DNA of 47,685 bases from Coleofasciculus chthonoplastes F2-STO-03 (GCA_040222015.1 JAVJWO010000064.1:1-47685), one strand, 5' to 3'; numbered from the stretch's first letter, positions 2,916 through 20,668 are shown. A program made the numbers and translations. Notes: a model not told the origin generated them from the letters alone.

Positions 2916-3119
2916 ATGTCTAGGATTACCGTTTCCGATTTACCTTTAGCTGGTTCTGACTTGTTTCAAGGTGCTGAAACTTTTCTGAGTGATCTGACAG
3001 AAAATGACCTGTCGATTACGGCTGGACTGCCATTCCCTATCATTAGATCCATCATCGTTGATACAGCTCCCATGGGCGGCGAGGATCTTTTCTTTAAGTC
3101 TATTTCTTACATGGCGTGA
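2916..3119 (+). CDS. RiPP precursor peptide 1 (cyanobacterial IxxSDL...F/ExxL-type leader ending ITAG)
   Basis: Leader resembles those at 9364 and 9977 (MxxITxSDL); AG as a double-Gly variant; lies directly upstream of the kinase and lyase genes. Confidence 0.75.
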   Translation: MSRITVSDLPLAGSDLFQGAETFLSDLTENDLSITAGLPFPIIRSIIVDTAPMGGEDLFFKSISYMA

Positions 3120-3160
3120 TGGATTGCTCGTTCCCTTATATTTAAATAGCTTCATCGGTT

Positions 3161-4336
3161 ATGACATTTCTGTTGAATTCTGATAATATTTTCGATTATT
3201 TAGTGGAGCATGGTTTTTGCCATCCCTCAGAGCTAGCTCTCAGTCAGGTTGAGCCAGTTGCTGCCAAAAACTTTAACTTATTGGTAAAATTTACTGACAC
3301 TCATAAGCTTTTGGTTAAGCAGGAACGGCACAATCAGGACGGAAAAGCGGCTGGTGAGTTTTGGGGGGAGTGGCAGATACAACTGTTCTTACAACAATTT
3401 CCAGAGGTTGAACACCTACGCCAATTTTTGCCAGACGTGCTGCATTTTGATCGGGATCATTCAATTCTTGTCTGCCGTTATCTGGATGATTACCGGGATT
3501 TAATGGAGTTCTATACGAAGGAAAATAGTTTTCCTACAGAAATTACGGTGGCAATGGGTAGGTTTCTGGGAACTCTCCATCGCGATACATTTAACTGTCA
3601 AGACTATCAGCATTTCTTTGCTCAACAGTCGGATACTCTTACAACTGAGCAAGTCCCTAAATTGATTCGGGGGTTGGAACGAATTGGACCCGAAGTTTTT
3701 GGTCAAGTGCCTGCTGATGGGTTGAAGTTTTTTGCCCTTTATCAGCGGTATGATAGTTTGGGGCAGGCGATCGCGGAATTGGGCAGTGCTTTTTCTCCCT
3801 GTTGCCTGACGCACAATGACCTGAAGTTGAATAATATCCTGCTGCACACCGATTGGGCGCAAACCGATGATAGCATTGTGCGTTTCATTGACTGGGAGCG
3901 CTCGACGTGGGGAGATCCAGGGTTTGATTTGGGAACATTGATTGCTAGCTATGTGCAAATTTGGCTGGGTAGCTTGGTGATCAGTAGTTCACTAAGTATC
4001 GAAGAGTCTCTGCAGTTAGCGGCGACACCTCTGGAACAGCTTCAGCCTTCTATTGCGGCTCTGACTCAAGCTTATTTTGACAGGTTTCCGGAAATATTAA
4101 ACCATCGCCCTGATTTCTTACGGCGGGTGGTGCAATTTGCGGGTTTTGCCTTGATTCAACAGATTCAGGCGATGATTCAGTATCAAAAGTCTTTTGGCAA
4201 TATGGGGATTGCGATGCTTCAGGTGGCTAAGACGTTGTTATCTCGTCCGGAACAATCGATGGCGACGATTTTTGGTGCGGCGGCGGTTCAATTGAGTAGG
4301 GGCACGGCACTGCCGTGCCCATCCGTGTCAACTTAA
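3161..4336 (+). CDS. Aminoglycoside phosphotransferase-family kinase (LanK/TvaC-like peptide kinase)
   Basis: LLVKQE, HNDLKLNNIL catalytic loop, IDWE motif; paired with a HopA1-like gene. Confidence 0.85.
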   Translation: MTFLLNSDNIFDYLVEHGFCHPSELALSQVEPVAAKNFNLLVKFTDTHKLLVKQERHNQDGKAAGEFWGEWQIQLFLQQFPEVEHLRQFLPDVLHFDRDHSILVCRYLDDYRDLMEFYTKENSFPTEITVAMGRFLGTLHRDTFNCQDYQHFFAQQSDTLTTEQVPKLIRGLERIGPEVFGQVPADGLKFFALYQRYDSLGQAIAELGSAFSPCCLTHNDLKLNNILLHTDWAQTDDSIVRFIDWERSTWGDPGFDLGTLIASYVQIWLGSLVISSSLSIEESLQLAATPLEQLQPSIAALTQAYFDRFPEILNHRPDFLRRVVQFAGFALIQQIQAMIQYQKSFGNMGIAMLQVAKTLLSRPEQSMATIFGAAAVQLSRGTALPCPSVST

Positions 4337-4386
4337 GCCACTACCCCCTCTCCCCCAACCCCTCTCCCACCCTGGGGAGAGGGGAG
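4296..4386. repeat. Two palindromic repeat elements (GTAGGGGCACGGCA-TGCCGTGCCC inside the kinase 3' end; CCCCTCTCCC...GGGAGAGGGG hairpin after the stop)
   Basis: Inverted repeats read directly at 4296-4320 and 4344-4386. Confidence 0.65.
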
Positions 4387-4430
4387 TAAGAGGGAAGCGT
4401 AAGTTCCAATATATTTAGTGACAAACGATT

Positions 4431-5552
4431 ATGCAATTACTCGATTTTCCTCAAACTCAGCGAACAACTGAGGCAACTGGGCGATTACTGGATGTTCTAG
4501 AGGATATTGTTAACAAGGTTGAGATTCAGTCTGATTTCTCGATTCGTCATCCTGATTACAAACCCTTTGAACTGCCTGCGGAGGTGGTTGCCCGTTTTCA
4601 GAAAATGCCTGGGGATATTCAGCGGAAATATCTGAGTCTGCAACTGCGGAGTTTTCTCTACGGGATTTATTACAATGGCTCGATACGAACCGCCCTGGCA
4701 CCAGAGGCGGATTCAAATCCTCTGCCCCTAGACCTGGAGAACAATACCATGTTGGGGGTAGATTTGGGGTTTTATCAGCGATTGCATGACAGCAATGGCG
4801 GTACTGGCTATTTTGATAGAGGTTGGTATGTTCTCAGGGAGGAAAATGATGGCAGTTTAGCGGTGACGAAGGGGAGTTTGAGGCTGCATATTCAGCGCGA
4901 TAAGCATCTTCAATCATTTGAGCAAGCTGCTGTTGTGGGTGATTCGGTGGCTATCCGGATGCCTAAGAATTTTGTGCAAAATGGCTTTTATATGGCGGTT
5001 GGCAATGTGGGGTCAAATCGTCTTGAGGATGCAAAGGGTGAGTCGGTGACGGTGCGTATCTACTTCAATTTGACTCCTGAAGGTGCAGTTGCGGTGATGG
5101 GTAGCCTGACACGGCGGCTAAATGAGAAGGCGATTCCTTTTAATTTCAAGGTTTTGTACAATCCAAAGGATTATGGGCGGCATGATTCAGGGGTGCTGTA
5201 CTTCGATAAGAGTGACTATGAGGTAGTTAGGGACATTTTGCCGGCTGTGTATGGGGAGAATCCAGCGTATTTTCAGGATGAGGTTCCTTTATTTACGATG
5301 CAGTTAGCACCGGGGTTGGGGTTGGCTGAGGAACCCGACCAAAAGTTTGCTGATCAGGAAAGCTTTGGCATGAATCGGTGTCAGATTGTGGCGAATGGGT
5401 TGCTGGAGGCTTGGTACAAAGGGGATGACTCACCAGAGGGGAAGATGACCTCTATACTTCAGCAATTCTCCCTCCTGGGAGTTGGCTTGCAGCGTGTCTA
5501 CCTCAATCCTAACTCTGAAGATATCTACACGCCAATAGACTTATGCAACTGA
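4431..5552 (+). CDS. HopA1-family protein (LanY/TvaD-like phospho-Ser/Thr lyase)
   Basis: VRIYFN, FKVL, RHDSGVLY, LAPGLGLAEEP and SFGMNRC motifs typical of this family; follows an APH kinase. Confidence 0.85.
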   Translation: MQLLDFPQTQRTTEATGRLLDVLEDIVNKVEIQSDFSIRHPDYKPFELPAEVVARFQKMPGDIQRKYLSLQLRSFLYGIYYNGSIRTALAPEADSNPLPLDLENNTMLGVDLGFYQRLHDSNGGTGYFDRGWYVLREENDGSLAVTKGSLRLHIQRDKHLQSFEQAAVVGDSVAIRMPKNFVQNGFYMAVGNVGSNRLEDAKGESVTVRIYFNLTPEGAVAVMGSLTRRLNEKAIPFNFKVLYNPKDYGRHDSGVLYFDKSDYEVVRDILPAVYGENPAYFQDEVPLFTMQLAPGLGLAEEPDQKFADQESFGMNRCQIVANGLLEAWYKGDDSPEGKMTSILQQFSLLGVGLQRVYLNPNSEDIYTPIDLCN

Positions 5553-5577
5553 TACTCCAAAATTTCTGAAGAGGACT

Positions 5578-5709
5578 TTATGTTTTATAGTAACTTTTCT
5601 CGTTCAGTCCAAGAATTCCCTTGATCTGAATTTTAAGGTCTTCTGTAGTTAGTGTGCTAAATTCTTCGTTTAATTTGCCAGAATATTTTACAGCAATAGC
5701 TGTAACCAT
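5578..5709 (-). CDS. Possible 43-aa small ORF, weakly leader-peptide-like
   Basis: MVTAIAVKYSGKLNEEFSTLTTEDLKIQIKGILGLNEKSYYKT; AGGG 5 nt upstream of the ATG; not in ORF track. Confidence 0.3.
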   Translation of the reverse strand: MVTAIAVKYSGKLNEEFSTLTTEDLKIQIKGILGLNEKSYYKT

Positions 5710-5828
5710 TTTTACCCTGCTTTTAAGATAGTTTTGAGGCACTTAAAAGCTACAGTTCCTGTGTGGTGAAATTCTTGGCTCATTAAAACTGATAGTTTAG
5801 CACACTAATTTCGGAAGAACCCTTATTA

Positions 5829-6050
5829 TTCAATTCCGGTTGAATAATTTCCTCTACAAAAATCAGGTGTACTCCTTTAGAAGTCACGATGGGTTTGAGA
5901 ACCTGCGGTGGCGTAGCCGCAAAAACAGCAGCAGAAATTTCCGGTTTCAACTCCTTACGCTGCACAAGCCGCCGATATCCCCTTTTCGGTGTAACTCGAT
6001 ATCCTGAATATATTGATGAGCCACCTCATAGAAACTCATTTGTCCTTCTT
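5829..6050 (-). pseudogene. Fragment of a second PpiC-type peptidylprolyl isomerase gene
   Basis: Closely matches about 10620-10845 (KPEISAAVFAATPPQVLKP.VTSKGVHLI.VEEII.PEL); 1-bp deletion near 5980; both ends missing. Confidence 0.85.
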
Positions 6051-6181
6051 TAAGTTTTCAATCTATATTCTATTAATTGCATTATTTTATTCTTTTTTAA
6101 ACAAACATTAAGCTTGATATTGGGGCGGCAGATATCAGACAATTAACTACAGAGCAAGTTCAAGTTAACAGGAAACTCAAA

Positions 6182-6445
6182 ATGGACGAAAATCAAAGAA
6201 AACACCACGGTCAAATTGAAATTGCTGACCTGATTAGTGAAGCTGTTTCTAACGCGGCTGCACGACGGAACCAAGTTCTAGATTCAGAAGAGCCTTTGTC
6301 ATCGTTATCTGATGCACAGGCAGAAGGAGTCGTAGGGGGTTACGGGAATTTTATCGTACCTGACAATGCTATACCTTCTATAGAGATAGATATAGTAACA
6401 TGGGGATTTCATAAAGAGGAGTTTAATGGAAAATATAACGACTAA
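6182..6445 (+). CDS. RiPP precursor peptide 2 (helical leader ending LSDAQAEGVVGG; core YGNFIVPDNAIPSIEIDIVTWGFHKEEFNGKYND)
   Basis: Double-glycine motif; AGGA upstream; first gene of the radical SAM operon. Confidence 0.75.
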   Translation: MDENQRKHHGQIEIADLISEAVSNAAARRNQVLDSEEPLSSLSDAQAEGVVGGYGNFIVPDNAIPSIEIDIVTWGFHKEEFNGKYND

Positions 6446-6866
6446 AAATACCACACTACTTTGCCCCAGTGCTAGACCAGAATCAGTGGAAAGTGTTGTC
6501 TTCGGGGTGGTCACTGGAACGGTGAAAGAACCCCGTGTAACTTATCTCAAACAGCCGCAATCTGTCACGGATGAATTGATGGCTTTGTCTAGTCCAGTTA
6601 CACCGACTGAAGTTTTTCGGATTGCAGCACCGTGCGCGACGAAAAGTTGTCAGCATTTTGATGGCAAAACTTGTCGTTTAGCGATGCGAATTGTAGAAAA
6701 GCGAGATGCTGTAGTAGAAGAATTGCCACCCTGTTCTATCCGCAGAGACTGTCGGTGGTATCAGCAAGAAGGCAAGGCAGCTTGTATGCGTTGTCCGCAA
6801 GTTGTCACGGATAACTACAACCCGTCTGAACAAATACGTCAAGTGGCGACGCCGACTGCTGGTTAA
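6426..6866 (+). CDS. Cys-rich conserved hypothetical protein (8 Cys; family often labelled 'nitrogen fixation protein')
   Basis: CPSA, CxxxxCxHF, CxxRxxCRW and CxRCP motifs; overlaps the upstream ORF by 20 nt. Confidence 0.75.
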   Translation: MENITTKNTTLLCPSARPESVESVVFGVVTGTVKEPRVTYLKQPQSVTDELMALSSPVTPTEVFRIAAPCATKSCQHFDGKTCRLAMRIVEKRDAVVEELPPCSIRRDCRWYQQEGKAACMRCPQVVTDNYNPSEQIRQVATPTAG

Positions 6867-6908
6867 GCAAAGCTACCAGATGACTTTAAGTAATGTAAGG
6901 AGAGAATT

Positions 6909-7262
6909 ATGTCATTAGAAAATGTCAAAGCTTTTTACGAAAGGCTAGCAACTGATGAGGTTTTCCGTTCTCAAATTCAAGGCGTTAAAAATAAGGATGA
7001 ATGTAGCCAAATCGTCAAAATTGCTGGCTATGATTTCACCCAGCAAGAGTTTGAGGAATATACTGTCCAGTTGTTAGAGTCAAGTATTAATAATGATGAA
7101 CTCATGGATCTAAATGAAAAAGAACTGGAAGCTGTTTTTGGTGGGGCAAGTTCAATCATAGGCAAGCCCCCTATACAGCAGATATATGGAGTTGTGTGGC
7201 AACCCTACCAGCCAATGTATGGAATTATTCAGATAGATGACATAGGTAAGGAGGCGTTTTAA
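6909..7262 (+). CDS. Nif11-leader RiPP precursor 3 (spliceotide-type, two XYG sites)
   Basis: Nif11 leader (MSLENVKAFYERL...AGYDFT...LNEKELEAVFGG); core contains IYG and MYG; AAGGAG RBS. Confidence 0.92.
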   Translation: MSLENVKAFYERLATDEVFRSQIQGVKNKDECSQIVKIAGYDFTQQEFEEYTVQLLESSINNDELMDLNEKELEAVFGGASSIIGKPPIQQIYGVVWQPYQPMYGIIQIDDIGKEAF

Positions 7263-7355
7263 GAAACCACTGTTGCTTAGGTAATAGCTCAAGTTTCTGA
7301 GAGGGACAGAAATATGTCCGCTCCCCTTCTAAAGAAATTAATTGAGGGTATTTTG

Positions 7356-8618
7356 ATGACCTATCGTAGAATGAGTTATGCGGTTTGGGAAATAACTCTT
7401 AAGTGCAATCTTGCCTGTCAACACTGCGGTTCTCGTGCTGGTCATACCAGGGCGAAAGAACTTTCCACTGAAGAAGCCCTTGATATGGTTAGGCAGCTGG
7501 CGGAAGTCGGGATTAAAGAAGTAACCCTAATTGGGGGCGAGGCTTTTTTGCGTCCTGACTGGCTGGTGATTGCCCAAGCTATTACCTCTGCTGGGATGCT
7601 GTGTGGTATGACTACTGGGGGCTATGGTATTACCCTGGATACAGCACGCCAGATGAAGGAAGCTGGGATAAGGGTGGTTTCTGTATCGGTTGATGGCTTA
7701 GAAGCGACTCATGATCGCTTGCGTGGGAGACAAGGCTCCTGGCAATGGGCGTTTAAAACGATGAGCCATCTCAAGGAAGCGGGTATTCCCTTTGGCTGCA
7801 ATACTCAAATCAATCGCCTCTCTGCACCGGAATTCCCCCGTATCTATGAGCGTATCCGGGATGCTGGAGCTTTCGCTTGGCAGATTCAATTGACTGTGCC
7901 GATGGGGAATGCAGCGGATAATAGCGACATTCTGCTGCAACCTTATGAACTACTGGATGTGTACCCAATGATTGCTCGTGTTGCCCAAAGAGCGAATCGA
8001 GAGGGGGTGCGGGTTCAGCCAGGGAATAATATCGGCTACTACGGTCCCTATGAGCGACTATTGCGGGGAGGGGATGCTTGGTCGTTTTGGCAGGGATGCA
8101 GCGCTGGACTGTCTGCTTTGGGCATTGAAGCAGATGGAGCTATCAAAGGTTGTCCCTCACTGCCTACTTCAGCCTATACCGGAGGCAACATCCGCGACCA
8201 TTCACTCCGGACAATCATCGAGGAGGCGGAGGAACTGCGGTTTAATTTAGGGGCTGGTACTCCCAAAGGAACGGAGCATTTGTGGGGTTTCTGCAAGACT
8301 TGTGAATTTGCTGAACTCTGTCGTGGTGGTTGCAGTTGGACTGCTCATGTTTTCTTTGACAGGCGAGGGAATAATCCTTACTGCCACCACCGCGCACTGG
8401 CTCAAGCAAAGCAGGGTATGCGCGAGCGAGTTGCTCTTAAGGTTCGCGCACAGGGGAATCCGTTTGACAATGGAGAATTTAGTCTGATTTCGGAGCCGAT
8501 TGACACCCCTTGGCCTGAAAATGACCCGCTTCATTTTACGGCTGAGTGCATTCAGTGGTCAGAAGGCTGGCAGGATGAACCTGATATGGTATCGTCCCTG
8601 GTCAGTTCAAGTAGTTAA
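7356..8618 (+). CDS. Nif11-class peptide radical SAM/SPASM maturase, PlpX/PcpX-type splicease
   Basis: CNLACQHC radical SAM motif, GGE, SPASM cysteines (GCSAG, GCPSL, CKTC..LCRGGC, PYC); sequence closely resembles PcpX as recalled; start at MTYRR with GAGGG upstream (ORF track starts at 7314). Confidence 0.92.
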   Translation: MTYRRMSYAVWEITLKCNLACQHCGSRAGHTRAKELSTEEALDMVRQLAEVGIKEVTLIGGEAFLRPDWLVIAQAITSAGMLCGMTTGGYGITLDTARQMKEAGIRVVSVSVDGLEATHDRLRGRQGSWQWAFKTMSHLKEAGIPFGCNTQINRLSAPEFPRIYERIRDAGAFAWQIQLTVPMGNAADNSDILLQPYELLDVYPMIARVAQRANREGVRVQPGNNIGYYGPYERLLRGGDAWSFWQGCSAGLSALGIEADGAIKGCPSLPTSAYTGGNIRDHSLRTIIEEAEELRFNLGAGTPKGTEHLWGFCKTCEFAELCRGGCSWTAHVFFDRRGNNPYCHHRALAQAKQGMRERVALKVRAQGNPFDNGEFSLISEPIDTPWPENDPLHFTAECIQWSEGWQDEPDMVSSLVSSSS

Positions 8619-8682
8619 AACTGAATGGCACCCTCAATTCTGATGAAAATCCATTCAGAGATACCATTACCCGCTATTCACC

Positions 8683-8910
8683 ATGAATGATATGTCCGTT
8701 AGTTCTATCTCATCGGTTGATACTCCAGTCATTGAGAGGACTGGCAGTAACGAGTCATCCGTTGACGATTCTCAGGCTCAGGTAGGTACTCTCCCATCTC
8801 TACTGCCTCGCTCAGCTTGGAATAGTCAGATAGCTTTCTTGAGAGTTGCTTTTAGAGCGAAGCAAGCTTTAGACCGAGTAGAGAAGGAAGCAGATATGTT
8901 GAGAAGTTAA
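8683..8910 (+). CDS. PlpY/PcpY-like splicease accessory protein
   Basis: LLPRSAWNSQIAFLRVAFRAKQALDRVEK matches the recalled PlpY/PcpY motif; small gene directly after the splicease. Confidence 0.8.
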   Translation: MNDMSVSSISSVDTPVIERTGSNESSVDDSQAQVGTLPSLLPRSAWNSQIAFLRVAFRAKQALDRVEKEADMLRS

Positions 8911-9363
8911 AGTTGATTAGCTGCAAAGACTACAGAAGTCTGTGGCTTTAGCTGGAAAGGTTTTTTCCACAAGCAAACTACCTCTACTTTTAGTTAAGTC
9001 CAGGAACTAGCGATCGCTCTTTTTTTCTCAAATTTAGTAGCGATCGCTTTTTAGCTGCATTTTTGAGCAGCACATGCAGCATTTCTGTTCGCCGTACTGC
9101 TCTGGATAGTCCAAAAGAGTCAATGATCTTGAAGAAATAATTAATTTAATTGTTGCTAGGAAAAGGCTTATATACTCTTTTAATTTGAATTAAGGGTATT
9201 GTTACTTTTCCTAAAAACAAAGAAATAAATACAATTGTTGTTTCTATAATTAAGTGATAAAAACCTTGAAATAATAGAGCAAATACCAGAACATGGTAAT
9301 GGGATGAGGCAATTCAAAGTCTAATCCCAACCGAAACAACTTTACTTAGGAGTACATTTCCAA

Positions 9364-9531
9364 ATGGCTAAGATTACAATCTCTGATCTGCATCCTGCTG
9401 AACTAAAATATGAAAAAATGTCTGACCTAGAACTGAAATCTGTCGTAGGAGGAAAAGCCCCAAAGTATAGCGTAAATCTTAAGTGGAGTCAAAAAGAGGG
9501 AGTTTCTGTTGGGTTGACTATCAAGTTTTGA
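9364..9531 (+). CDS. RiPP/bacteriocin precursor 4, 55 aa (leader ...MSDLELKSVVGG; core KAPKYSVNLKWSQKEGVSVGLTIKF)
   Basis: Below the ORF-track cutoff. AGGAG RBS, canonical double-Gly leader, same start (MAKITISDL) as 9977. Confidence 0.88.
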   Translation: MAKITISDLHPAELKYEKMSDLELKSVVGGKAPKYSVNLKWSQKEGVSVGLTIKF

Positions 9532-9647
9532 TAAAAACACAAGAGATAGTAGCACGAAAGAGAAACGTATCCTCTTAGGATTAGGAGGAAATCAGCCAGA
9601 AATTATCCTTAATTAACGCTTTGACGTTTTGGAAATCTTATTCTCTT

Positions 9648-9679
9648 TCAACCCAAGGTTTATCTTGGGTTGATTTTTT
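9648..9679 (+). terminator. Rho-independent terminator
   Basis: TCAACCCAAG-gtttat-CTTGGGTTGA followed by T6. Confidence 0.8.
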
Positions 9680-9976
9680 GTGATTCTTTTTAAGGGGGAG
9701 ATGAAGGAGGCAATTGAGGGTGAACAAAAGAGTAAAATGATTTAATTATTTTCTCAAATCATCCTAATTTTTTAGTTAATACACTCTTTTAATTAATTTG
9801 AGCTAAGGGTATCGTTACTTTCCCAAAAAACAAAGAAATAAATGTAATTATTCTTTCTATAATTAAGTGACAAAAACCTTGAAATAATAGAGCAAATACT
9901 AGAACATGGTAATGGGATGAGGCAATTTAAAGCCTGATTCCACCCAAAATAACTTTACTTAGGAAAACATTTCCAA

Positions 9977-10168
9977 ATGGCTAAGATTACAATTTCAGAC
10001 CTAGCTCATTCCCCGAATTCCGAAAGCTTTTTTACCAAGCTAAATGAGTTAACTGATCCAGACATGGCTTCGCTAATGGGTAATATCATCGGGGGCACCT
10101 GCACAACCACCACCACTTACCGCCGAAACGGTACCATCAAGAAGGAGGTTAAGGTATGTGACTGCTAG
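9977..10168 (+). CDS. RiPP precursor 5 (leader ...GNIIGG; Thr/Cys-rich core TCTTTTTYRRNGTIKKEVKVCDC)
   Basis: Double-Gly leader with SESFF motif; AGGA upstream. Confidence 0.88.
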   Translation: MAKITISDLAHSPNSESFFTKLNELTDPDMASLMGNIIGGTCTTTTTYRRNGTIKKEVKVCDC

Positions 10169-10216
10169 TAATTACCCTTAATTAACGCTTTGACGTTTTA
10201 GAACTCTTATTCTCTT

Positions 10217-10248
10217 TCAACCCAAGATAAACCTTGGGTTGATTTTTT
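10217..10248 (+). terminator. Rho-independent terminator
   Basis: TCAACCCAAG-ataaac-CTTGGGTTGA followed by T6. Confidence 0.8.
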
Positions 10249-10435
10249 ATGATTATTTTTAATTAAAGGAAACTATGAATGAGGCAATGGAGATACAAAA
10301 AAAAATAAAATACTAATAAAATCGTATTATGTTTTGGTATTAAGAAAATAAAAGCATTGAATTATGGGAAAAAATACCAGAACGAAGATGCTTTATAAGT
10401 CATAATAAAAATCCTCTGTAAGGACGTAGACCAGC

Positions 10436-10467
10436 AAAGCTATCTGATATTCATCAGATAGCTTTTT
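10436..10467. terminator. Hairpin between convergent genes, probable terminator
   Basis: 13-bp stem AAAGCTATCTGAT-attc-ATCAGATAGCTTT. Confidence 0.65.
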
Positions 10468-10508
10468 ATAGTGATTAAAAGATAGAGGCGTTGTTAGAGT
10501 TCCATAAC

Positions 10509-11264
10509 CTACGCCGCTTTGCTGTTTGATTCTATACTAGCAACAACTGTAGTTTTCTCAATTTGCTGCTTCCGCCACCCAGCAAATAAATCTGACAGAA
10601 TTTGATGGCGCAGCTTGTCATCCAACTCCGGCTCAATAATCTCCTCAACCAAAATTAGATGTACTCCCTTAGATGTCACTACTGGCTTAAGCACCTGCGG
10701 CGGTGTAGCCGCAAAAACAGCAGCAGAAATTTCCGGCTTCATATCCTTACGCTGTACCATCCCCCGATATCCCCCCTTTCGGCGTAACTCTGTATCCTGG
10801 ATATATTGATGAGCCACCTCATAGAAACTCATCTCGCCTTCTTGAATCGCATAGAAGAGTTCCATCGCCAAATCTTCATCATCCAGGACAACTTCATACA
10901 TAACAACCCCAGCATAATCCAACTGATGTTCAATAAAAAAGGGTTCAACTTTGTCCGCAAATAGATGGTGCGCCAACTTCCCAGAGATGACATTGTTGTA
11001 AATTAATTCTTCAAAATCATCTAGAGAAAGACCATTTTTTTGTAACCATGCCTTAGTTTCCTCCGCACTGTTAAGTTTGCTGATTAACCGTAGGCTGTCT
11101 GCTGCTTTCTGAAGTTCCTCTGTCTCCACTTTAATCCCTGCTTCCGCTGCAGCATCCGCAATAACCTTGCGAGTAACAATTTGCTCAACTATCTCAGGAA
11201 TCTGACACGATAGCTTAACTTGATGCAGAATATCCTCATGGGAAATCGTAATTGCTTGGGACAT
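10509..11264 (-). CDS. PpiC/parvulin-type peptidylprolyl isomerase of cyanobacterial peptide-export operons
   Basis: SurA-like helical N-terminus, FYEVAHQY..D...RRKGGYRG, GVHLILVE; follows HlyD. Confidence 0.88.
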   Translation of the reverse strand: MSQAITISHEDILHQVKLSCQIPEIVEQIVTRKVIADAAAEAGIKVETEELQKAADSLRLISKLNSAEETKAWLQKNGLSLDDFEELIYNNVISGKLAHHLFADKVEPFFIEHQLDYAGVVMYEVVLDDEDLAMELFYAIQEGEMSFYEVAHQYIQDTELRRKGGYRGMVQRKDMKPEISAAVFAATPPQVLKPVVTSKGVHLILVEEIIEPELDDKLRHQILSDLFAGWRKQQIEKTTVVASIESNSKAA

Positions 11265-11311
11265 GATATACTCCTCAATTCTAACGTTTTACGGGAAGTC
11301 TATAAACTATT

Positions 11312-11394
11312 GTAGAGACGCGCCATGGCGCGTCTGGGCGGGTTTAGTCACATCTTGGTGAAACCGAAAAGATAGTAGTAAAACCCGCCCCTAC
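11312..11394. repeat. Composite GTAG REP-like element
   Basis: GTAGAGACGCGCCATGGCGCGTCT fused to GGGCGGGTTT...AAACCCGCCCCTAC. Confidence 0.75.
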
Positions 11395-11524
11395 ATTACC
11401 AATATTCCATGCGCCACATACCGTAAAAACTAGGCTCCTCAATTAGGTTATTGATTGTCTATTTCAACCAGCCAATGTAAATCGGTTAATTTTCCGGTAA
11501 ACCCGAATCCATAGCCTCAAAACT

Positions 11525-13093
11525 CTAAAGTTCAAACCCCCCTTTTTGCAACTTCTTAAACGGGTCAAGAATAAAATCAATGATCCGACGCTGGCGGATA
11601 ATCACCTCAGCCGTTGCTGTCTGTCCAGCCGCCAAATCTATACAACCTTGTGAACTTTTAATACAAGTCTGTTTCAACTCAATTTCCAAGTCAAACGTCG
11701 CTATCTGTCCCTGCTCAGTTTCCGTCACCTTAGACGTAGGTGAAATCTGACTTACCGTTCCTTCAACTACTCCGTAATCTTGGAACGGATAAGCATCAAA
11801 CTTCATCTTGACCGGCATTCCTTTACGCAGCGTTCCACTTTCAGATGTCGCCATCTGCGCCCGCAGGATAAGGGAAGCATTCTTGGGTGCAATCTCAGCA
11901 ATTAATGTACTCGGTTGTACTACCGCCCCAGTGCGTTGAATCGGTAACTGAAAAATCGTCCCACTTACAGGAGCGCGTAACACTCGTTGTCCTAACTGAA
12001 ATTCCCAAGCTTGAATCTGACTTTTACTCTGAGAAATTTCGGCTTTAAGCGTCGTAATTTGGGTTTGCAGTTCTTTGATCTGTTCTTCACTTTTAAGCAT
12101 AGCAATATCCCCCGAATGAATCAAACTTTGATAGCTTTTTTCCTGCTCTTGTAAGCGAAGTTTGCCTTGCTCGATATCAGACTGAGCTTGATGAATAATC
12201 CTCTGATAGCTACTTTGTTGCTCTTCCTTCCGTAGCTTAGATTGCTGCACATCTGACTCCGCTTGTTCCTGTAACCGTTGCCGTTCTTGAGCCAAATCTT
12301 CCTGTTCAACTACCTTAATTTCCGGAACCACACCTTGCTCCTGAATTTGACGGTAACGTTGGACTTCTCGTTGTGCCTTAGCTAAACGAATTTCTGCTAA
12401 ATTCAAGGCAGTTTTGCTATATTCAAGGTTTTTCTCTGCCTGATTGACTTGAGCCAGTTTCTCCTCCTTTTGTAAGTTGTAAGAATTCCTGAGAGACTCC
12501 AAATTCTGCCGTGCTTGCTCCACTTGAGCCTGTTTTTCCAATGCTTGAGCCTGATTCTGTTGTTGTTGAGCGCGAACTCCCAGAAGTAATTGGTTTTTCA
12601 TCAATTCCAACTGCGCCAGCCGATTTTGTTGCCCTTCCAATCTCGTCTGAGCTTGCTGGAGTTCGCTCTTAATCTCCTCGGATTCCAGTTCTAGTAACGG
12701 CTGTTTGTTGGTAACGAATTGACCTTCCTTAACTAAAACCTTGGCTACTGTCCCCGCCACGGGTGCATCGACTTTAAACACATTTCCCTGGGGCTCAAGT
12801 CGCCCTCTAGCACTCCCAGTTTCATCTACCTTAGATAACATTGCCCAGGGTAAGATAACGCCAGCAAACACGACTAAGAAATACAATAACCCCCGCGTCC
12901 AAACTCGCGGTACAGTATCAATCAGTTCCTTAGTCAACGATGACCAATCTTCACTAATCAGTTCCGATGAATTTACCTGATTGGGTAGTGCTGTTTGAGC
13001 CGGATTATTAGTCATAATCGCTTCAGACAGTTCTTTCTCACCACTATAGTGACCATTCCGACTCCCTGGTTCCTGTGTCGATAGGTTTGGCAT
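11525..13093 (-). CDS. HlyD-family membrane fusion protein
   Basis: N-terminal TM helix, lipoyl half-motifs (DAPVAGTV..VLVKEG; RAPVSGTI), long coiled coil, DAYPFQDYG. Start may be 13093 or 13126. Confidence 0.93.
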   Translation of the reverse strand: MPNLSTQEPGSRNGHYSGEKELSEAIMTNNPAQTALPNQVNSSELISEDWSSLTKELIDTVPRVWTRGLLYFLVVFAGVILPWAMLSKVDETGSARGRLEPQGNVFKVDAPVAGTVAKVLVKEGQFVTNKQPLLELESEEIKSELQQAQTRLEGQQNRLAQLELMKNQLLLGVRAQQQQNQAQALEKQAQVEQARQNLESLRNSYNLQKEEKLAQVNQAEKNLEYSKTALNLAEIRLAKAQREVQRYRQIQEQGVVPEIKVVEQEDLAQERQRLQEQAESDVQQSKLRKEEQQSSYQRIIHQAQSDIEQGKLRLQEQEKSYQSLIHSGDIAMLKSEEQIKELQTQITTLKAEISQSKSQIQAWEFQLGQRVLRAPVSGTIFQLPIQRTGAVVQPSTLIAEIAPKNASLILRAQMATSESGTLRKGMPVKMKFDAYPFQDYGVVEGTVSQISPTSKVTETEQGQIATFDLEIELKQTCIKSSQGCIDLAAGQTATAEVIIRQRRIIDFILDPFKKLQKGGFEL

Positions 13094-13173
13094 TTTATTC
13101 TTGATTGTTAATTGTTCATTGTTCATTGGAATTTATAAGGAAAAGCCATCAGCTAACTGTGGGATAGATTTGT

Positions 13174-13236
13174 TTTGTAGTGAGGGCTTTAGCCCTCTCC
13201 AGTTATGCGTTAAAGCACTAAAGTGCTTACTACAAA
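13174..13236. repeat. GTAGT-type REP-like doublet
   Basis: TTTGTAGTGAGGGCTTTAGCCCTC...GCACTAAAGTGCTTACTACAAA; related halves at 34584-34608 and 41401-41425. Confidence 0.7.
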
Positions 13237-13365
13237 CAAAGCACTATTTTAGCTGTGCCACGCCACTACAAAGGTGATATGCTTCCTTTCTAATTAAAAT
13301 GTCAGCGTTCAAAATGACAAAGTACACTAGACAGTCTCTAATTTCCATTAGCGTTAACCGTTAAT

Positions 13366-16119
13366 TCAACCCGTCATCGTAAATTGCTGCTGATTGAGGT
13401 AGAAATACTGACCCCGTTTTGCCATTAATTCATCGTGAGTTCCACTTTCTACCAAAACCCCTCTATCCAACACCAAAATTCGGTCAGCATTGCGGACAGT
13501 TGACAGGCGATGAGCAATCACTAATGTTGTCCGATTCGTCAGAATCGTATTCAGATTAGTTTGAATAATCCGTTCCGATTCAGCATCAAGATTACTCGTC
13601 GCTTCATCTAAAATCAACAATCGCGGATTTCCTAATAAAGCACGAGCAATCGCCAGACGCTGTCGTTGTCCCCCCGAAAGCATTCCTCCCCCTTCACCAA
13701 TTTGGGTTTCATAACCCATGGGCAATTCTTTAATAAACTGATGCGCTCCCGCCTGTTTCGCCGCTTCAATCACATCATCTAACGTAGCTTCGGGATGACC
13801 CACCGTAATATTCTCCCGAATTGTACCCCCAAATAGAAACGTATCCTGGTCAACCACACCAATTTGCTGACGGAGCGATCGCAACGATAAACTGGTAACA
13901 TCATAGCCATCAATGAGAATCTTGCCTTCAGTCGCAGGATAAAGTCCCAAAACCAGCTTAGAAATCGTCGTTTTCCCCGAACCACTACGCCCAACCAGCG
14001 CCACCATTTGCCCTGGCTGCACCTCAAAACTAAGATTTTCTAGCGTATTCAGATCACTTTCTGGGTGGTAACGAAACGTGACTTGCTCAAACCGAATATG
14101 TCCGCGAATCGGGGGTAAAAATTGACGAGATGACGAGTGTAAATCTTCCTCCGGTTCAGCGTCAATCACATCATTAATCCGCTCCACCGCAATCACTACT
14201 TCCTGCAAATCATTCCACAACACAATCAGCCGCTGGAAAGGACGAATCACATTCCCCAGCAACATATTAAACGCGACTAATTGCCCAATCGTGAGTTCAT
14301 TTTGAATCACCAGCCACGCCCCAAACCAGAGTAATGCCGTCGTGACGACTGCTTCAATAGTTAAGCTAAATGTTTGCAGCGTATTACCAATCACCTGCCC
14401 AGAAAAGGACGTTTTAATCGACTTGCCAAGCAAATCCTCCCAATGCCAGCGCACCGTCTGCTCAACCGCCATAGATTTCACAGTACGAATACCTGTCAGG
14501 GATTGGATTAAGTAGCCCGTTTCCTCCGTATAAGCCCCAAAAATCTCACGGGAAACTCGCTGTAAAAAGGGTGTCGCAATTAACGCCAATAACACAAAAG
14601 GTGGTACAATAACTAACGTTAGCAGCGCCATCTTCCAACTGTACCAAAGCATCAACCCGACATAGATGAACACCGTCAGTAAATCCAGCAGAATGGATAG
14701 GGCTTCACCCGTAAGAAAACGCTGAATCTTGCGATTTTCCTGGACACGGGAAATGATGTCTCCCACATAACGAGACTCAAAGAAACTCAAGGGAAGCCGG
14801 AAGGTATGGCTAATAAAACCGACAATCAGCGCTAAATCGACTCGGTTGGCGGTATGATCCAGAAGGTACTGCCGCAAGCTAGTCATCGCGACTCGAAACA
14901 AGCCAAAGATGAGTAACCCTAACCCGACAGCGGTTAACGTCAACGTGCTGCGCTGTACAACCACCCGATCTAACAGCAATTGAGTAAATAGTGGCGTAAT
15001 CAGTCCAAAAATCTGAATCAAAACCGAAGCAATCAACACCTCCAGCAATACCAGTTGGTGGGGTTTCACCAGCTCAAAGAATTGCCAGAAGGGGGTGCTA
15101 GCTGCTTGAGCCTGTTTGAGCAGGGCTGTAGGTTGGAGTAATAAGGTATAGCCTGTCCAATCCGCTTTAAATTGGGCATAAGTTAGGCTGCGCTGACCAA
15201 TAGCCGGATCAGCCACAATCACGCGATCGCGAGTCACCTCATAAACGACAATATAGTGCTTCCCTTGCCAATGGACAATCGCAGGTAACCGTTGTTCAGC
15301 CAGTTTATTCAGACTGGCTTTTACCGGACGAGTCGTAAACCCAATACTCTCAGCAGCGGCGGCTAACCCGCGCAGTGACGCCCCATTGCGGTCAACATTG
15401 GCAATATCCCGCAGGCGATTCACACTAAACCGCTTCCCCCAATAGCGCCCCACCATCACCAGACAAGCAGCACCGCAATCCGAGGCACTTTGCTGGGCAA
15501 AGAAGGGATAGCGTCGGGTGATTCGCCCCCACCACTGACCTACTTTTACGGTAGGGTTGGGGAAGTACGCTCGACTTATCTGGGACTGGGGTTTTTGTTC
15601 CTCAGGCGGTTGAGACATGACAACTGTCTCAGACTGACTGGGAAATGCTGTAACCGAGGGGTTGTCCGTTGATTGGCTAGTGTTTGCCCCCCTCACCTGT
15701 GAATCTCGGCGTACTGCGGATGAGTACAAATGCTCTTTTATCGAAGGATACTGGCGAATGAGCGATCGCAAAACATCACCGGGAATATAGCAAAGCCTCA
15801 ACTTAACGGAAGCTCTAGCCGCATAGGGGTGAAATTCCTCCTCTGGAAACAGAGTGAGTTCACCAAATGATGCCCCTGTCTCTAGTGACGTGATTAAATC
15901 ATCTGTACTATTGAGCAGTCTGACTTTACCCGCCAAGATAATATAGAGTCCCACCGTCGCCTCTGCTGTCTCCCAGAACCGTTTACCTGGGGTTGGCTCT
16001 AGAATTTGAATCTGCTGAAAACAGTTTGAGAGTTCCCTATCTGAAAGAGCCTGTCCCAAGGTTTGGGCAAGTTGTTGACCAAGCTGTTGCTGGGAAAAAG
16101 TTGATGACTTCTGAACCAT
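13366..16119 (-). CDS. Peptidase-containing ABC transporter (cNMP-binding + C39 peptidase + TMD + NBD)
   Basis: LYIILAGKVRL/FGE cNMP-like domain; QQSASDCGAACL with intact catalytic Cys, HYIVV, ADPA; GRSGSGKT, LSGGQRQR, ILDEATS. Confidence 0.95.
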   Translation of the reverse strand: MVQKSSTFSQQQLGQQLAQTLGQALSDRELSNCFQQIQILEPTPGKRFWETAEATVGLYIILAGKVRLLNSTDDLITSLETGASFGELTLFPEEEFHPYAARASVKLRLCYIPGDVLRSLIRQYPSIKEHLYSSAVRRDSQVRGANTSQSTDNPSVTAFPSQSETVVMSQPPEEQKPQSQISRAYFPNPTVKVGQWWGRITRRYPFFAQQSASDCGAACLVMVGRYWGKRFSVNRLRDIANVDRNGASLRGLAAAAESIGFTTRPVKASLNKLAEQRLPAIVHWQGKHYIVVYEVTRDRVIVADPAIGQRSLTYAQFKADWTGYTLLLQPTALLKQAQAASTPFWQFFELVKPHQLVLLEVLIASVLIQIFGLITPLFTQLLLDRVVVQRSTLTLTAVGLGLLIFGLFRVAMTSLRQYLLDHTANRVDLALIVGFISHTFRLPLSFFESRYVGDIISRVQENRKIQRFLTGEALSILLDLLTVFIYVGLMLWYSWKMALLTLVIVPPFVLLALIATPFLQRVSREIFGAYTEETGYLIQSLTGIRTVKSMAVEQTVRWHWEDLLGKSIKTSFSGQVIGNTLQTFSLTIEAVVTTALLWFGAWLVIQNELTIGQLVAFNMLLGNVIRPFQRLIVLWNDLQEVVIAVERINDVIDAEPEEDLHSSSRQFLPPIRGHIRFEQVTFRYHPESDLNTLENLSFEVQPGQMVALVGRSGSGKTTISKLVLGLYPATEGKILIDGYDVTSLSLRSLRQQIGVVDQDTFLFGGTIRENITVGHPEATLDDVIEAAKQAGAHQFIKELPMGYETQIGEGGGMLSGGQRQRLAIARALLGNPRLLILDEATSNLDAESERIIQTNLNTILTNRTTLVIAHRLSTVRNADRILVLDRGVLVESGTHDELMAKRGQYFYLNQQQFTMTG

Positions 16120-16122
16120 GAG

Positions 16123-16695
16123 TTAGTTACTGGTCTTGATAAAATTGAGTGACCACGGGAGTTCGGACTCGCAAGCAGATTGCAAGTCCCCAATTCTGAT
16201 GCGAGAGCCTTGAGGGGTTTCCAACTCCGTTACCTCTGGTGCTGAATCAGATTTGGGTCGAGTGGAGAGTCCCATCTTCTTGAGCAAAAGGTTAACATTG
16301 CGATCGCTCACCTCAATCCCTAACTCTTTCGCCAGATGCTTACTTAACCATTGCCCGGTCCATCGCCCAAAGGAATAGCCATAATCACGAGGACTATGGC
16401 TCACCAGTTCTTTCAACCGCTCTAAATACTGATCATTCACCGTCTTCGGGCGACCAATCCGACTCTCTTGCCATTGGTGTGCCATTCCCGCACGGGCGAC
16501 GTGTATCCAATGCCGTGCGGTTGCTGGACAACACCCCAAGGTTTGACAAATTTTGGCTTGAGATATCCCTTCATCTGCCAGCAACATGATTTCAATCCGC
16601 TGGCGGTACTTTTCCGGTAAATCCTCTTGCAGACTTTTTTGCAGCAGTTTGCGCTGAAACGGTGTTAGATGCTGACCCGATGTTTTCACCGTCAT
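16123..16695 (-). CDS. HTH protein resembling the IS630-type transposase DNA-binding region (no DDE domain)
   Basis: RQRIEIMLLADEG..QAKICQTLGC, GRP, P.DYGY..GRWT..WL..HL; ends 3 nt before the ABC start, so probably cotranscribed. Confidence 0.8.
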   Translation of the reverse strand: MTVKTSGQHLTPFQRKLLQKSLQEDLPEKYRQRIEIMLLADEGISQAKICQTLGCCPATARHWIHVARAGMAHQWQESRIGRPKTVNDQYLERLKELVSHSPRDYGYSFGRWTGQWLSKHLAKELGIEVSDRNVNLLLKKMGLSTRPKSDSAPEVTELETPQGSRIRIGDLQSACESELPWSLNFIKTSN

Positions 16696-16985: not shown

Positions 16986-18093
16986 ATGAATCAAAAGGAG
17001 TTCGAGGAAGCATTTAATCGGCTAACACCCCGACGCAAGCAAGTGTTACGACGAGTATTGGCGGGTGAAACCGATGGCGCGATCGCCAAGTCTCTGAAGA
17101 TTGGAGAAGCGACAGTCAGAAAACATATTGAACGGACTTGTCAAACATTAGGCTTAGACAATAACCATGCCGATGAGCGCCGCTACAAACGCTTGGAAGT
17201 CGCTAAGCTCGTGGCAAAGTACAAACCTGAACTACTCACAGACTCCACCCCTGTCACTGCCAATGAAGTGACACCCGAAACAGCCAATGCCCAAGACACC
17301 AGTGATGCTGAGAGAGGGGATACCCAAACCCTTGAGCCGACAAAATTAGCTGAACCCTCTCAAGATGAACCTGATGTCATCTGGCAGTTACCCGCCATGA
17401 CCCCACCCGTCCGCGAGCAGCTCCTCAAAACCTTCAGCCAACTGATTGACGAGGAACCCAAACGGAAGCAAATTGCTAAAAATCTCAACAAAATTGGCTA
17501 TGAACGCTACCTAGACGGGGACTTCCAAAGTGCTGCATTTTATTTACAGTGGGCAATTGAATTTAATCCCAACCTAGGCGGCGCTCACTACAACCTGGGT
17601 TCAACCTATGAAAAGCTGGAAGATGTTGAGCGTGCCTACCACCATTACCAAACAGCAGCCAACCACAAGGGACGCGCCGCCGATGCTGCCTTGAGTAACC
17701 TGGCTCGTTTAGACATTTTGGCAGGAAACAGCGCTACAGCGATTGAGCGACTCTTACCAAGAATAAACCAGGTTAAGGATGCTTCGGTGAAATCCTCTGT
17801 CCACAAAAATCTGGGTTGGGCGTATCTGCTGCAAAAGCAATATTCTGACGCCCAATATCACCTGCAAAAGGCAATTGAATTAGATAGCGAACGTGCGGCT
17901 AGTTACTAGTTACTGTTTACTGGCACAAGTGCAAGACATTCAAGGGGACGAGGAAAGCGCTCTGGCATCATGGGCAAACTGCCTTACCTATGACACCAGA
18001 GACAAGAGACGAAAAGAAGTCGCTTGGAGATCTCCGGAATTAGACTTCTGGCAGTTTCAGGCACGCGAACGCCTAAAACCTGTAGGCAATTAG
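16986..18093 (+). pseudogene. LuxR-type HTH + TPR regulator, frameshifted near the C-terminus
   Basis: LTPRRKQVL...IAKSLKIGEATVRKHI HTH followed by TPRs; a 7-bp duplication TAGTTAC (17900-17913) creates the stop, and the second frame continues CLLAQ as in the paralog at 18503. Confidence 0.85.
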
Positions 18094-18441
18094 GCAAAAA
18101 CGTCTGGACAACGAGTGACGTTTTCCGTTCCAGGTAGCGGTACTAGAGTTCGACATCAAGGATTAGGAACAATTGGCACATCATTTTCATCATCCTCATC
18201 CTCCTCCTGAATAGAGTGAGTAGACATAGAGTTACCGATGAGTGCAAAGTAATACATGGCTTTGGCAAACTAAAGTTCACAACAAATCAAGACTGCTGTT
18301 CACACTCACATCACAATCTTCATCATGCTGGCGGTGCTTGGCAGTCATTTGACCGTTGAATTTAGAATAATTGGGGGAATTGCCTTCAAACCAGCTACCC
18401 GCGCCGGACGCTAGAAACTTTCTACAATAAGCGATAGACAG

Positions 18442-18477
18442 TTAGGGGACGTTGCTAAAATTAGGGGAATCCCCCAA
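18442..18477 (+). promoter_or_regulatory. Putative operator (TTAGGGGA x2 + TCCCCCAA)
   Basis: Matches the reverse complement of 2251-2286. Confidence 0.5.
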
Positions 18478-18502
18478 CTTTCTGACAGGGTTTGACTTGG
18501 CG

Positions 18503-19561
18503 ATGGCGAGACCACACTACGGACCAGAAGCGAAAAAGCAGGCAAAACGCCTCTTTGAGGCATTACTGGCTTACGCGAATGACGAATTGGAGAATGGAGA
18601 GCATCTAAAAATTCAGGTCAACTGGCAGAATGAGAACCAGTTGGTTGTCAGGACAAAGGTAAGATTTCTGGAACAACTGACAGCCCTAGACCCCTACGAT
18701 GGCAAGTTAAATAGCAACCAAATCAAGCAAGCGCTCAAGCGGCTGGCAAATTTCTTGGGGATTTTGACAGATAACCGTCCTGGAACGAAGGGTTTACATG
18801 ATTGGCACTTTACCCTGAAACTTTGGCATCACAGGTACGAAAAACAGGCAAACCTGCAACGGTTTGATGTAGAGTGGGAGAATCGCCGAGCGAAAAAATC
18901 GTTGCCCGCGAGTCGCTCCCAGACGCTTGGCAACCTAGGGACGGTTCATCGCTTTTCACCGAGCATCTACAACGAACGCGGCGTGGACAATTACCTCAGT
19001 GATCAACTGCCACTGGTTATCAATAACTTTACCGAAGCCCTCAAATTGGAGCCAAACTTTGCAGAAACTCACTACAATCTGGGGGTATTCTACGAAGATC
19101 TCCGAGACTTTGACCGTGCCCGCTCTGAATACAGACTAGCGATGCAGGACGGTCTTGCTGCTGCTTATAATAACCAGGCACGTTTATCTATTCTAGAAAA
19201 AGACTATGCCGCTGCGGTTGACTTGCTACTGAAAGGACTGAAGTTAGCGAAACACAACGCCGAAAAATATGCGTTTTGGAAAAACCTGGGCTGGGTACGG
19301 CAAAAGCAGGGTCGCCATCGGGAGGCAAAAGATTGTCTGATTAGTGCGATTGAGCTGGAAAAGGAACAGGCATCAGCTTACTGCTTATTAGCTCAAACTC
19401 TAGACAATCTGGGAGAAAAGACCGAAGCTTATGTAACCTGGGAAAACTGCCTCAGATATGCTAGTAGTTACCGACCGGATGAGGATGCCTGGATTGATTT
19501 GGCACGCGAGGATGCCTGGATTGATTTGGCACGCCAACATTTGGCACAAACAGATAGCTAG
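18503..19561 (+). CDS. Putative winged-HTH + TPR protein
   Basis: First ~130 aa closely similar to the N-terminus of 659..2227; TPRs (THYNLG, KNLGW, AYCLLAQ); exact 27-bp tandem duplication at 19481-19534. Confidence 0.85.
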   Translation: MARPHYGPEAKKQAKRLFEALLAYANDELENGEHLKIQVNWQNENQLVVRTKVRFLEQLTALDPYDGKLNSNQIKQALKRLANFLGILTDNRPGTKGLHDWHFTLKLWHHRYEKQANLQRFDVEWENRRAKKSLPASRSQTLGNLGTVHRFSPSIYNERGVDNYLSDQLPLVINNFTEALKLEPNFAETHYNLGVFYEDLRDFDRARSEYRLAMQDGLAAAYNNQARLSILEKDYAAAVDLLLKGLKLAKHNAEKYAFWKNLGWVRQKQGRHREAKDCLISAIELEKEQASAYCLLAQTLDNLGEKTEAYVTWENCLRYASSYRPDEDAWIDLAREDAWIDLARQHLAQTDS

Positions 19562-19608
19562 AGCTAACTGCATCTTAGTTTAACAAAAGGTATGGTAAAA
19601 AATCGGGA

Positions 19609-20649: not shown

Positions 20650-20668
20650 AAGCCAATACTTTAAAATT

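Follow-up and report, generated by a model that had tools for sequence, protein, structure and literature searches.

Spliceases such as PcpX and PlpX excise tyramine at X-Tyr-Gly (XYG) sites in peptides that are ribosomally synthesized and then modified post-translationally (RiPPs) and leave alpha-keto-beta-amides, and dehydration by a kinase and a lyase has been shown for the actinobacterial pair CaoK/CaoY. In cyanobacteria, HopA1/phosphotransferase clusters of 'Family 1A' have been catalogued, with 570 peptides in 183 clusters and variable cores (PMC8153245), and multi-cluster loci of Rheinheimera place a spliceotide cluster beside other RiPP clusters (graspetide and spliceotide) and yield spliceotide products that inhibit proteases (PMC11626197). 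Here we analysed contig C64 of the 7.7-Mb genome of Coleofasciculus chthonoplastes F2-STO-03 (GCA_040222015.1, JAVJWO010000064.1:1-47685; the whole stretch of 47,685 nt is called the window), in which positions 2916 to 16695 hold a RiPP super-cluster, a type of locus that recurs and combines several modules whose chemistries are known or predicted. It resembles the Rheinheimera loci in its co-located clusters and differs from them in splicease type, which is type II there, and in the partner chemistry.

We propose, with a probability of roughly 70%, that a variable slot for cargo, next to a conserved HTH-C39/ABC-HlyD-PpiC operon (HTH, helix-turn-helix), has collected three independent precursor/enzyme modules: a type I splicease set, a kinase/HopA1 pair with Family-1A precursors, and a third module, peptide 6182 with the Cys-rich protein 6426, which an earlier sequence-only reading of the window had missed. 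Every module would have a leader of its own as its address, and all would share a double-glycine tag for export. The features, in window coordinates and with the evidence for each, are as follows.

2916..3119, plus strand: Family-1A-type precursor (2916); leader-type hidden Markov model (HMM) and alignment of relatives
3161..4336, plus strand: APH-fold Ser/Thr kinase, LanK-like; PF01636
4431..5552, plus strand: predicted HopA1-family phospho-Ser/Thr lyase, LanY-like; PF17914, 198 bits
5637..5821, no strand: dispersed repeat of about 185 bp that abuts the ppiC remnant; blastn within the own genome
5822..6053, minus strand: truncated second ppiC, 3' part; 84% nucleotide identity to 10614-10846
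6182..6445, plus strand: third-module precursor (6182) with leader helix and GG site; leader-type HMM
6426..6866, plus strand: Cys-rich protein of 146 aa (6426), candidate maturase of 6182-type peptides; linkage and conservation
6909..7262, plus strand: Nif11-leader spliceotide precursor (6909); PF07862, TIGR03798
7356..8618, plus strand, reading frame open from 7314: type I splicease X, a radical SAM (rSAM)/SPASM protein; TIGR04103
8683..8910, plus strand: splicease activator Y; likeness to the PcpY helix region
9364..9531, plus strand: short Family-1A-type GG precursor (9364); leader-type HMM
9977..10168, plus strand: Family-1A-type GG precursor (9977); leader-type HMM
10509..11264, minus strand: PpiC/SurA-like peptidyl-prolyl isomerase, a mosaic gene; family scan and block comparison
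11525..13126, minus strand: HlyD adaptor; TIGR01843 above cut-off
13366..16119, minus strand: cNMP-C39 peptidase-ABC exporter; family scan and residues
16123..16695, minus strand: HTH protein with IS630-like N-terminus, probable regulator; family scan and conservation in loci L082 and L083
16791..16828, no strand: perfect 38-bp palindrome, candidate operator; single locus in the genome

Every open reading frame (ORF) named by the sequence-only reading was recovered in place. Its count of five precursors of three leader types was borne out by HMMs built here, which assigned 2916, 9364 and 9977 to Family 1A, 6182 to a type of its own and 6909 to Nif11, while the AG cleavage site that it had ascribed to 2916 lies out of register; GG stands in register on four of the five leaders and 2916 has GL, so that GG or GA does not occur on all five. 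By hhalign, the C-terminal C39 recognition stretch is the only part common to all three leader types, and a short IxIxDL start is common to the Family-1A and 6182 types (probability 79-92%). The 'small helper' reported beside the rSAM gene does exist as Y (8683-8910), but two small genes are present, and 6426-6866 belongs to a separate Cys-rich family. Cyclase (LanC), flavin decarboxylase and YcaO genes were, as had been reported, found nowhere among the scanned ORFs of the window; LanC-like and YcaO genes of the genome sit on other contigs, YcaO on C40 and C193 only.

A survey of cyanobacterial genomes, proposed earlier as a check, revealed repeated co-occurrence of HopA1 and splicease genes. 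The splicease loci were the best 80 of 233 confirmed, a selection biased to close relatives, and one of them was dropped as a duplicate (L072 of L071); among the remaining 79, kinase plus HopA1 occurred in 32, the Cys-rich gene in 58 and all three modules in 29, and among the 47 loci with full flanks the pair occurred in 22 and all three modules in 20. In an evenly drawn phylum sample of 401 genomes, in which broken assemblies lower co-location counts, we found 25 close splicease genes in 23 other genomes, eight of them with HopA1 within 5 kb (hand count), and a HopA1 match in 59 of the 401 genomes. The earlier view that the combination is rare is not sustained, as the arrangement is widespread and as a published supplement already sets out all three leader types together with Y alongside HopA1 genes (PMC8153245). 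It lists 28 Nif11 rows, 6182-type peptides and Y beside HopA1 genes, including those of Tolypothrix PCC 7415 (around AVH79456) and Nostoc punctiforme PCC 73102, and places the 6182 type in network 3, Nif11-YG in network 4 and Y in network 7 (PMC8153245). These clusters thus share with the present locus the leader type and the set of Family-1A, 6182-type, Nif11-YG and Y genes near HopA1; they differ in that they were described by bioinformatics only, in that the cassette order is mostly another one, and in that splicing and Nif11 are not mentioned in the main text (PMC8153245). The literature searched contained no paper on the combination of splicease and HopA1, with Morinaka 2018 (Science) and Scott 2022 (Chem), which may already draw the architecture, outside its coverage. 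The PCC 7415 record is presumably a product of the splicease work of 2018. The hybrid cluster is accordingly a common modular type with parts already in public tables, and the window is one more example.

That the modules were assembled separately is suggested by Spearman correlations of protein identity, which are descriptive values from non-independent pairs: 0.86 for kinase-HopA1, 0.77 for rSAM-Cys-rich protein and 0.73 for rSAM-HlyD, as against 0.23 for HopA1-HlyD and 0.19 for rSAM-HopA1. Moreover, the genes occur in four orders or orientations, found 24, 7, 2 and 1 times among 34 loci, and the order seen here, with the cassette downstream of hopA1, is one of the rarer ones (2 of 34). The high kinase-HopA1 and low rSAM-HopA1 values, along with the four arrangements, speak against the idea of one evolved hybrid pathway.

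The conserved side of the locus is the exporter operon. The C39-ABC exporter carries C215, H288 and D304, the presumed catalytic triad of the C39 peptidase, as well as the Walker motifs, and thus appears catalytically intact; export of all leader types by this shared exporter is likely. The HTH gene is conserved as the opening gene of the operon, with counterparts of 98-99% identity in the equivalent position of L082 and L083, and 22 of 80 splicease loci extend as far as this gene; the IS630-like product looks like a domesticated regulator, and the 38-bp palindrome separates the divergent HTH/exporter operon from a LuxR-TPR gene. In L082 and L083, HlyD, ABC and HTH are 92-99% identical to those of the window, but the cargo that sits between hopA1 and ppiC is different there; L083 still has short stretches that match 6843-6915 and 8744-8791, the scars of a cassette since lost, and a DNA search for the cassette in same-genus genomes gave no match in eight of eight. 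The nearest HopA1 loci are Coleofasciculus records with 92% and 89% identity. The slot in L082 also houses a nested second precursor-kinase-HopA1 set with a Cys/Thr-rich core (L082:1920-4479).

The slot itself bears traces of exchange. The 5' 150 bp of ppiC are identical to L082 at 144 of 150 positions, while internal blocks reach 107-121 of 150, and an ancestry comparison of the ppiC remnant with the intact copy gave 187/232 vs 187/233 and 194/232 vs 193/233. The truncated ppiC, which is a recombination scar, and the adjoining repeat sit between hopA1 and 6182; the repeat (5637-5821) has nine matches in its own genome, five of them of at least 150 bp, and many copies in same-genus genomes. 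Together, mosaic ppiC, truncated copy and adjoining repeat fit repeated exchange at the slot. Further dispersed repeats lie between genes of the locus at 4337-4395 (80 blastn matches in the genome), 11311-11395 (485) and 13140-13300 (35).

Regarding the first module, the rSAM protein scores 845 bits on TIGR04103 (cut-off 725) and carries CxxxCxxC plus seven further Cys in the SPASM region. In comparison with sequences taken from the PMC11414181 supplement, 63 of the first 70 residues counted from 7356, probably the true start of the protein as it matches that of PcpX, are identical to PcpX, and counts by eye likewise gave 20 of 29 residues shared between the ORF 8683-8910 and PcpY in its helix region. 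Of the 80 related splicease loci, 78 have a Y homologue and 79 a Nif11 precursor, and this genome holds one close splicease gene only. The Nif11 core contains I13-Y14-G15 and M24-Y25-G26, and with the TIGR04103 score and the Y helper these sites uphold a splicease acting on the Nif11 precursor. Judged by these likenesses, rSAM, Y and precursor are an ordinary type I spliceotide set near PcpX/PcpY: like PcpAXY of Pleurocapsa PCC 7327 and PlpA3XY of PCC 7319, it combines an rSAM/SPASM X, a separate Y helix protein and a Nif11-type precursor with two XYG sites including MYG, and it differs from them in having IYG as one site and in its neighbours, which are the kinase/HopA1 and Cys-rich modules and not the epimerase PlpD. 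By close homology to PcpX/PlpX, X activated by Y would cut tyramine out of the Nif11 core at both I-Y-G and M-Y-G and yield alpha-keto-beta-amides.

The second module consists of adjacent genes for an APH kinase and a PF17914 protein that appear intact. The kinase has K53, H218-x-D220-x-K222, N225 and D244, kept in 88-96 of 98 homologues, and reaches 94 bits on the LxmK model, below its cut-off of 315, so that it is not an LxmK equivalog. The lyase aligns to PDB 9dk1_B ('Lyase', E 4e-9), and its R209, K240, R250 and Y257 are kept in 94, 98, 100 and 94 of 104 homologues. Matched by motif spacing and not by direct alignment, these residues (31/10/7) correspond to those of CaoY (32/10/7), of which R187, K219, R229 and Y236 were tested (PMC9486802). 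The pair can be assigned to the cyanobacterial Family-1A clusters. In comparison with CaoK/CaoY of cacaoidin, a class V lanthipeptide, and TsaC/TsaD of the thioamitides, it shares the adjacent APH kinase and PF17914 lyase with the four lyase residues in register, but here no cyclase, decarboxylase or YcaO stands by, the leaders are of the GG type with C39 export and the LxmK model is not reached. Neither LanC, LanX or LanD, which would mark a class V lanthipeptide cluster, nor YcaO/TfuA of a thioamitide cluster was found among the scanned ORFs of the cluster. Because the locus has no cyclase, decarboxylase or YcaO, linear dehydro-peptides are to be expected; as in CaoK/CaoY, the kinase would phosphorylate and the HopA1 lyase eliminate Ser/Thr of the Family-1A cores.

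Family-1A cores near HopA1 are richer in Ser and Thr (17.7%, n=210) than those elsewhere (11.5%, n=43); 207 of 210 vs 36 of 43 have any Ser/Thr and 177 of 210 vs 22 of 43 at least three. The leader stretch F-x-D-x-E-S-F also tracks HopA1, with 158 of 219 vs 10 of 44 without, a pattern picked post hoc from the consensus in related genomes, where 'without HopA1' means that the fetched flank contains none. Of the window's Family-1A precursors, 2916 carries a variant of the stretch and 9977 a part; 9364 lacks it altogether, probably is no kinase substrate and probably stays unmodified. The dehydration candidates would be 2916 and 9977. The core of 2916 (30 aa) has four Ser/Thr behind a degenerate leader motif; its eight full-length relatives show the same core Ser pattern, with GG where 2916 has GL, and the Gly-Leu site occurs in 3 of 99 Family-1A leaders. 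The core of 9977 contains seven Thr and three Cys, and the Cys could add to dehydro-residues non-enzymatically. 9977 is a tandem duplicate of the 9364 unit with another core: 9170-10311 consists of tandem promoter-leader-terminator units with unrelated cores, upstream regions that are 87.5% identical over 224 bp and a hairpin terminator at 9648-9673 after 9364. Cyanobacterial kinase/HopA1 clusters are numerous, and the leader motif and the conserved-Ser subfamily found here point to substrates. Apart from the window, a second kinase/HopA1/exporter cluster of this genome (C15, L001:6969-14283) has two Family-1A precursors, an aldo/keto reductase, a second PpiC-like gene and no splicease; the reductase, which recurs in L099, L145 and L161, might reduce the N-terminal keto-acyl group left by dehydration.

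Several observations weigh against three independently acquired, functional modules that are served by one exporter. Modules 1 and 3 travel together, as seen in the rSAM-Cys-rich correlation and in the 2916 subfamily, whose loci always also hold rSAM and Cys-rich genes (nine of nine), and may be functionally tied. The genome holds other C39-ABC exporters. Family-1A cores are said to be without conserved Ser, Thr or Cys (PMC8153245), and the literature searches found no test of a cyanobacterial Family-1A kinase/lyase. None of the three Family-1A leaders of the window matches F-x-D-x-E-S-F as written, the cleavage site of 2916 is Gly-Leu, as set by Leu at -12 and -7, and the core of the window's own 6182 departs from its family motif.

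The lead most worth following is the third module, the pair of a 6182-type peptide and a Cys-rich protein, in which the latter represents a small, widespread and mislabelled family tied to variable peptides. Its only label is an automatic 'nitrogen fixation protein', and the family forms 1096 clusters at 50% identity. Searches with 6426 gave no Pfam or NCBIfam family match, only scattered weak Pfam ones across 123 members, no PDB sequence match, no PqqD/RRE fold or Y helix, no sequence or fold match to characterised RiPP maturase families and, in atlas searches, unnamed or automatically named clusters only; no paper on the family appeared in the literature searched, beyond whose reach lie the Morinaka and Scott articles. 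In a set of 123 diverse members, each of the eight Cys is conserved in 122-123, while R65 and R106 are found in 123, W111 in 122, R122 in 120 and H77 in 107. A structure model from a diverse alignment reached pLDDT 93.9 and pTM 0.86 (61 pLDDT only from close relatives); Foldseek of this model against PDB and viral models had no match at E 0.001, a result that is no proof of a new fold, and VIA-align had none at Z 2 among 48,161 chains.

The linkage to peptides is equally consistent. In 92 of 97 cases the Cys-rich gene has a 6182-type ORF at most 1.5 kb upstream, and it occurs without rSAM in 17 of 80 HopA1 loci and without splicease in 6 of 25 other carrier genomes of the phylum sample. We further collected 20 non-cyanobacterial loci, labelled Alpha- and Gammaproteobacteria, Acidobacteriota, Chloroflexota and Longimicrobium, excluding L214, which is labelled Rhizobium and has cyanobacterial-type genes. 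In all 20, the Cys-rich gene is directly preceded by a short ORF (picked by eye) whose product has a helix and a hydrophobic x-Gly motif, whereas the same loose pattern occurs in 104 of 740 other short ORFs, and an HMM of these peptides retrieves the 6182 family with weak scores (105 of 127 matches at E <=10; hhalign probability 62%). The 20 loci have no common third gene, and none of the window's other genes, splicease and exporter included, matched there. The x-Gly motif is found in 103 of 138 cyanobacterial 6182-type cores vs 30 of 210 Family-1A cores. With a constant leader, variable multi-copy cores and one dedicated protein, 6182/6426 follows RiPP logic. Two similarities were examined and dropped: for the 6182 leader helix no homology to the Y helix was detected (hhalign probability <1%), leaving the parallel with Y as functional analogy only, and G-Y-G at the 6182 cleavage site is probably a chance likeness to a splice site, YG occurring in 2 of 138 family cores. 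Chimeric leaders with a Family-1A start and a 6182-type helix and GG site stand upstream of the Cys-rich gene in L172:4633-4851 and L214:2246-2464, and in gammaproteobacterial L166:3572-4574 it is closely followed by a small Cys-ending peptide and a radical SAM gene.

As to what 6426 does, linkage and conservation would fit a protein that binds the 6182-type leader helix and has its action on the Gly of hydrophobic x-Gly or beside it; it would most probably be a metal-dependent maturase that carries two Cys4 sites. We tentatively rate a maturase slightly likelier than the main alternative, a metal-stabilised binding partner (chaperone, carrier or self-protection) that would hold hydrophobic x-Gly cores, possibly spliceotides, and that we regard as possible but somewhat doubtful. 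A binding partner would agree with the small size and lack of a known catalytic fold, with a 6182-family motif that resembles the splice motif minus Tyr and with the phylum sample, where 16 of 26 Cys-rich copies have a splicease no more than 3.5 kb away (hand count). It is less easily reconciled with stand-alone two-gene loci, with the several divergent peptides per Cys-rich gene (five peptides and two genes in L219), with invariant Arg65 and Arg106 and near-invariant Arg122, Trp111 and His77, and with L205 (L205:4052-5423), where a leader-like helix is fused to the Cys-rich N-terminus and adjoins a nitrile-hydratase-leader precursor with an x-Gly motif, a fusion that mirrors maturase-activator fusions reported in PMC11414181. 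Cys-rich proteins P0121, P0122 and P0183 likewise have an N-terminal extension holding a leader-like helix. Were it an enzyme, the protein would add a new maturase fold, and it is conceivable, if short of probable, that 6182/6426 stands for a minimal two-gene RiPP class, so far undescribed and spread over at least five phyla, with a fold absent from the PDB, recruited or activated by the leader helix and modifying the backbone at hydrophobic x-Gly, and that cyanobacteria grafted the pair onto double-glycine export beside spliceases, XYG being the same motif plus Tyr.

Less plausible is a partly decayed locus, in which only the splicease module would still function, with 2916, 6182 and the ppiC remnant left behind as relics. 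It would account for the Gly-Leu site of 2916, for the truncation of ppiC by a repeat, for the deletion of the cassette in L083 and the failure of the DNA search to detect it in eight of eight same-genus genomes, and for 6182 reading through into the next gene, its frame running 20 nt into the Cys-rich gene where relatives usually stop about 28 nt before. On the other hand, all enzyme ORFs are intact with their catalytic residues, and contigs of the mat metatranscriptomes X1 and X4, which attest presence only and not transcription, contain near-identical kinase, Cys-rich/Nif11, rSAM and exporter pieces and cover all 30 locus bins, with one contig in X9 spanning 6458-8953, so the locus is present in other populations.

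A true hybrid pathway, in which the kinase and lyase would also dehydrate the N-terminal Ser of the spliceotide core to give doubly modified products, is very improbable: it could appeal to the ASS start of the window's Nif11 core, in which the sequence-only reading had seen a hint of cross-modification, to the 32 of 79 splicease loci with kinase/HopA1 and to the activity of PlpX without its leader (PMC11414181), so that promiscuity exists on the splicease side, but Nif11 cores start with ASS in 8 of 56 cases with HopA1 nearby vs 11 of 79 without, have Ser/Thr among their first three residues in 38 of 56 vs 50 of 79 (p 0.71) and contain 8.5% vs 8.6% Ser+Thr, rSAM and HopA1 identities hardly correlate, and the HopA1-linked motif is one of Family-1A leaders, with which the Nif11 consensus has only the C39 stretch in common. 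Because the modules reshuffle independently and the Nif11 cores show no trace of selection for cross-modification, the locus is better read as co-location than as hybrid chemistry. According to the three-module reading, C39 would finally cut at GG and export the mixture, with no core routinely modified by two modules.

Promoter and terminator counts stayed at chance level (29 vs 24.2 promoters; 13 vs 13.6 terminators). The cluster is flanked by EAD4-AAA_35, LuxR-TPR, EAD4-TPR and TPR-CHAT genes (659-2239 and 16986-23698). Farther along the window, a gene at 39294-40511, which lies in a low-GC stretch and downstream of a DUF6887 gene, encodes a fusion of an RNase III and an NCH2 domain, and a lone beta-ketoacyl synthase gene (43964-45157) lies between a hypothetical lipoprotein-like ORF and a cyclophilin gene.

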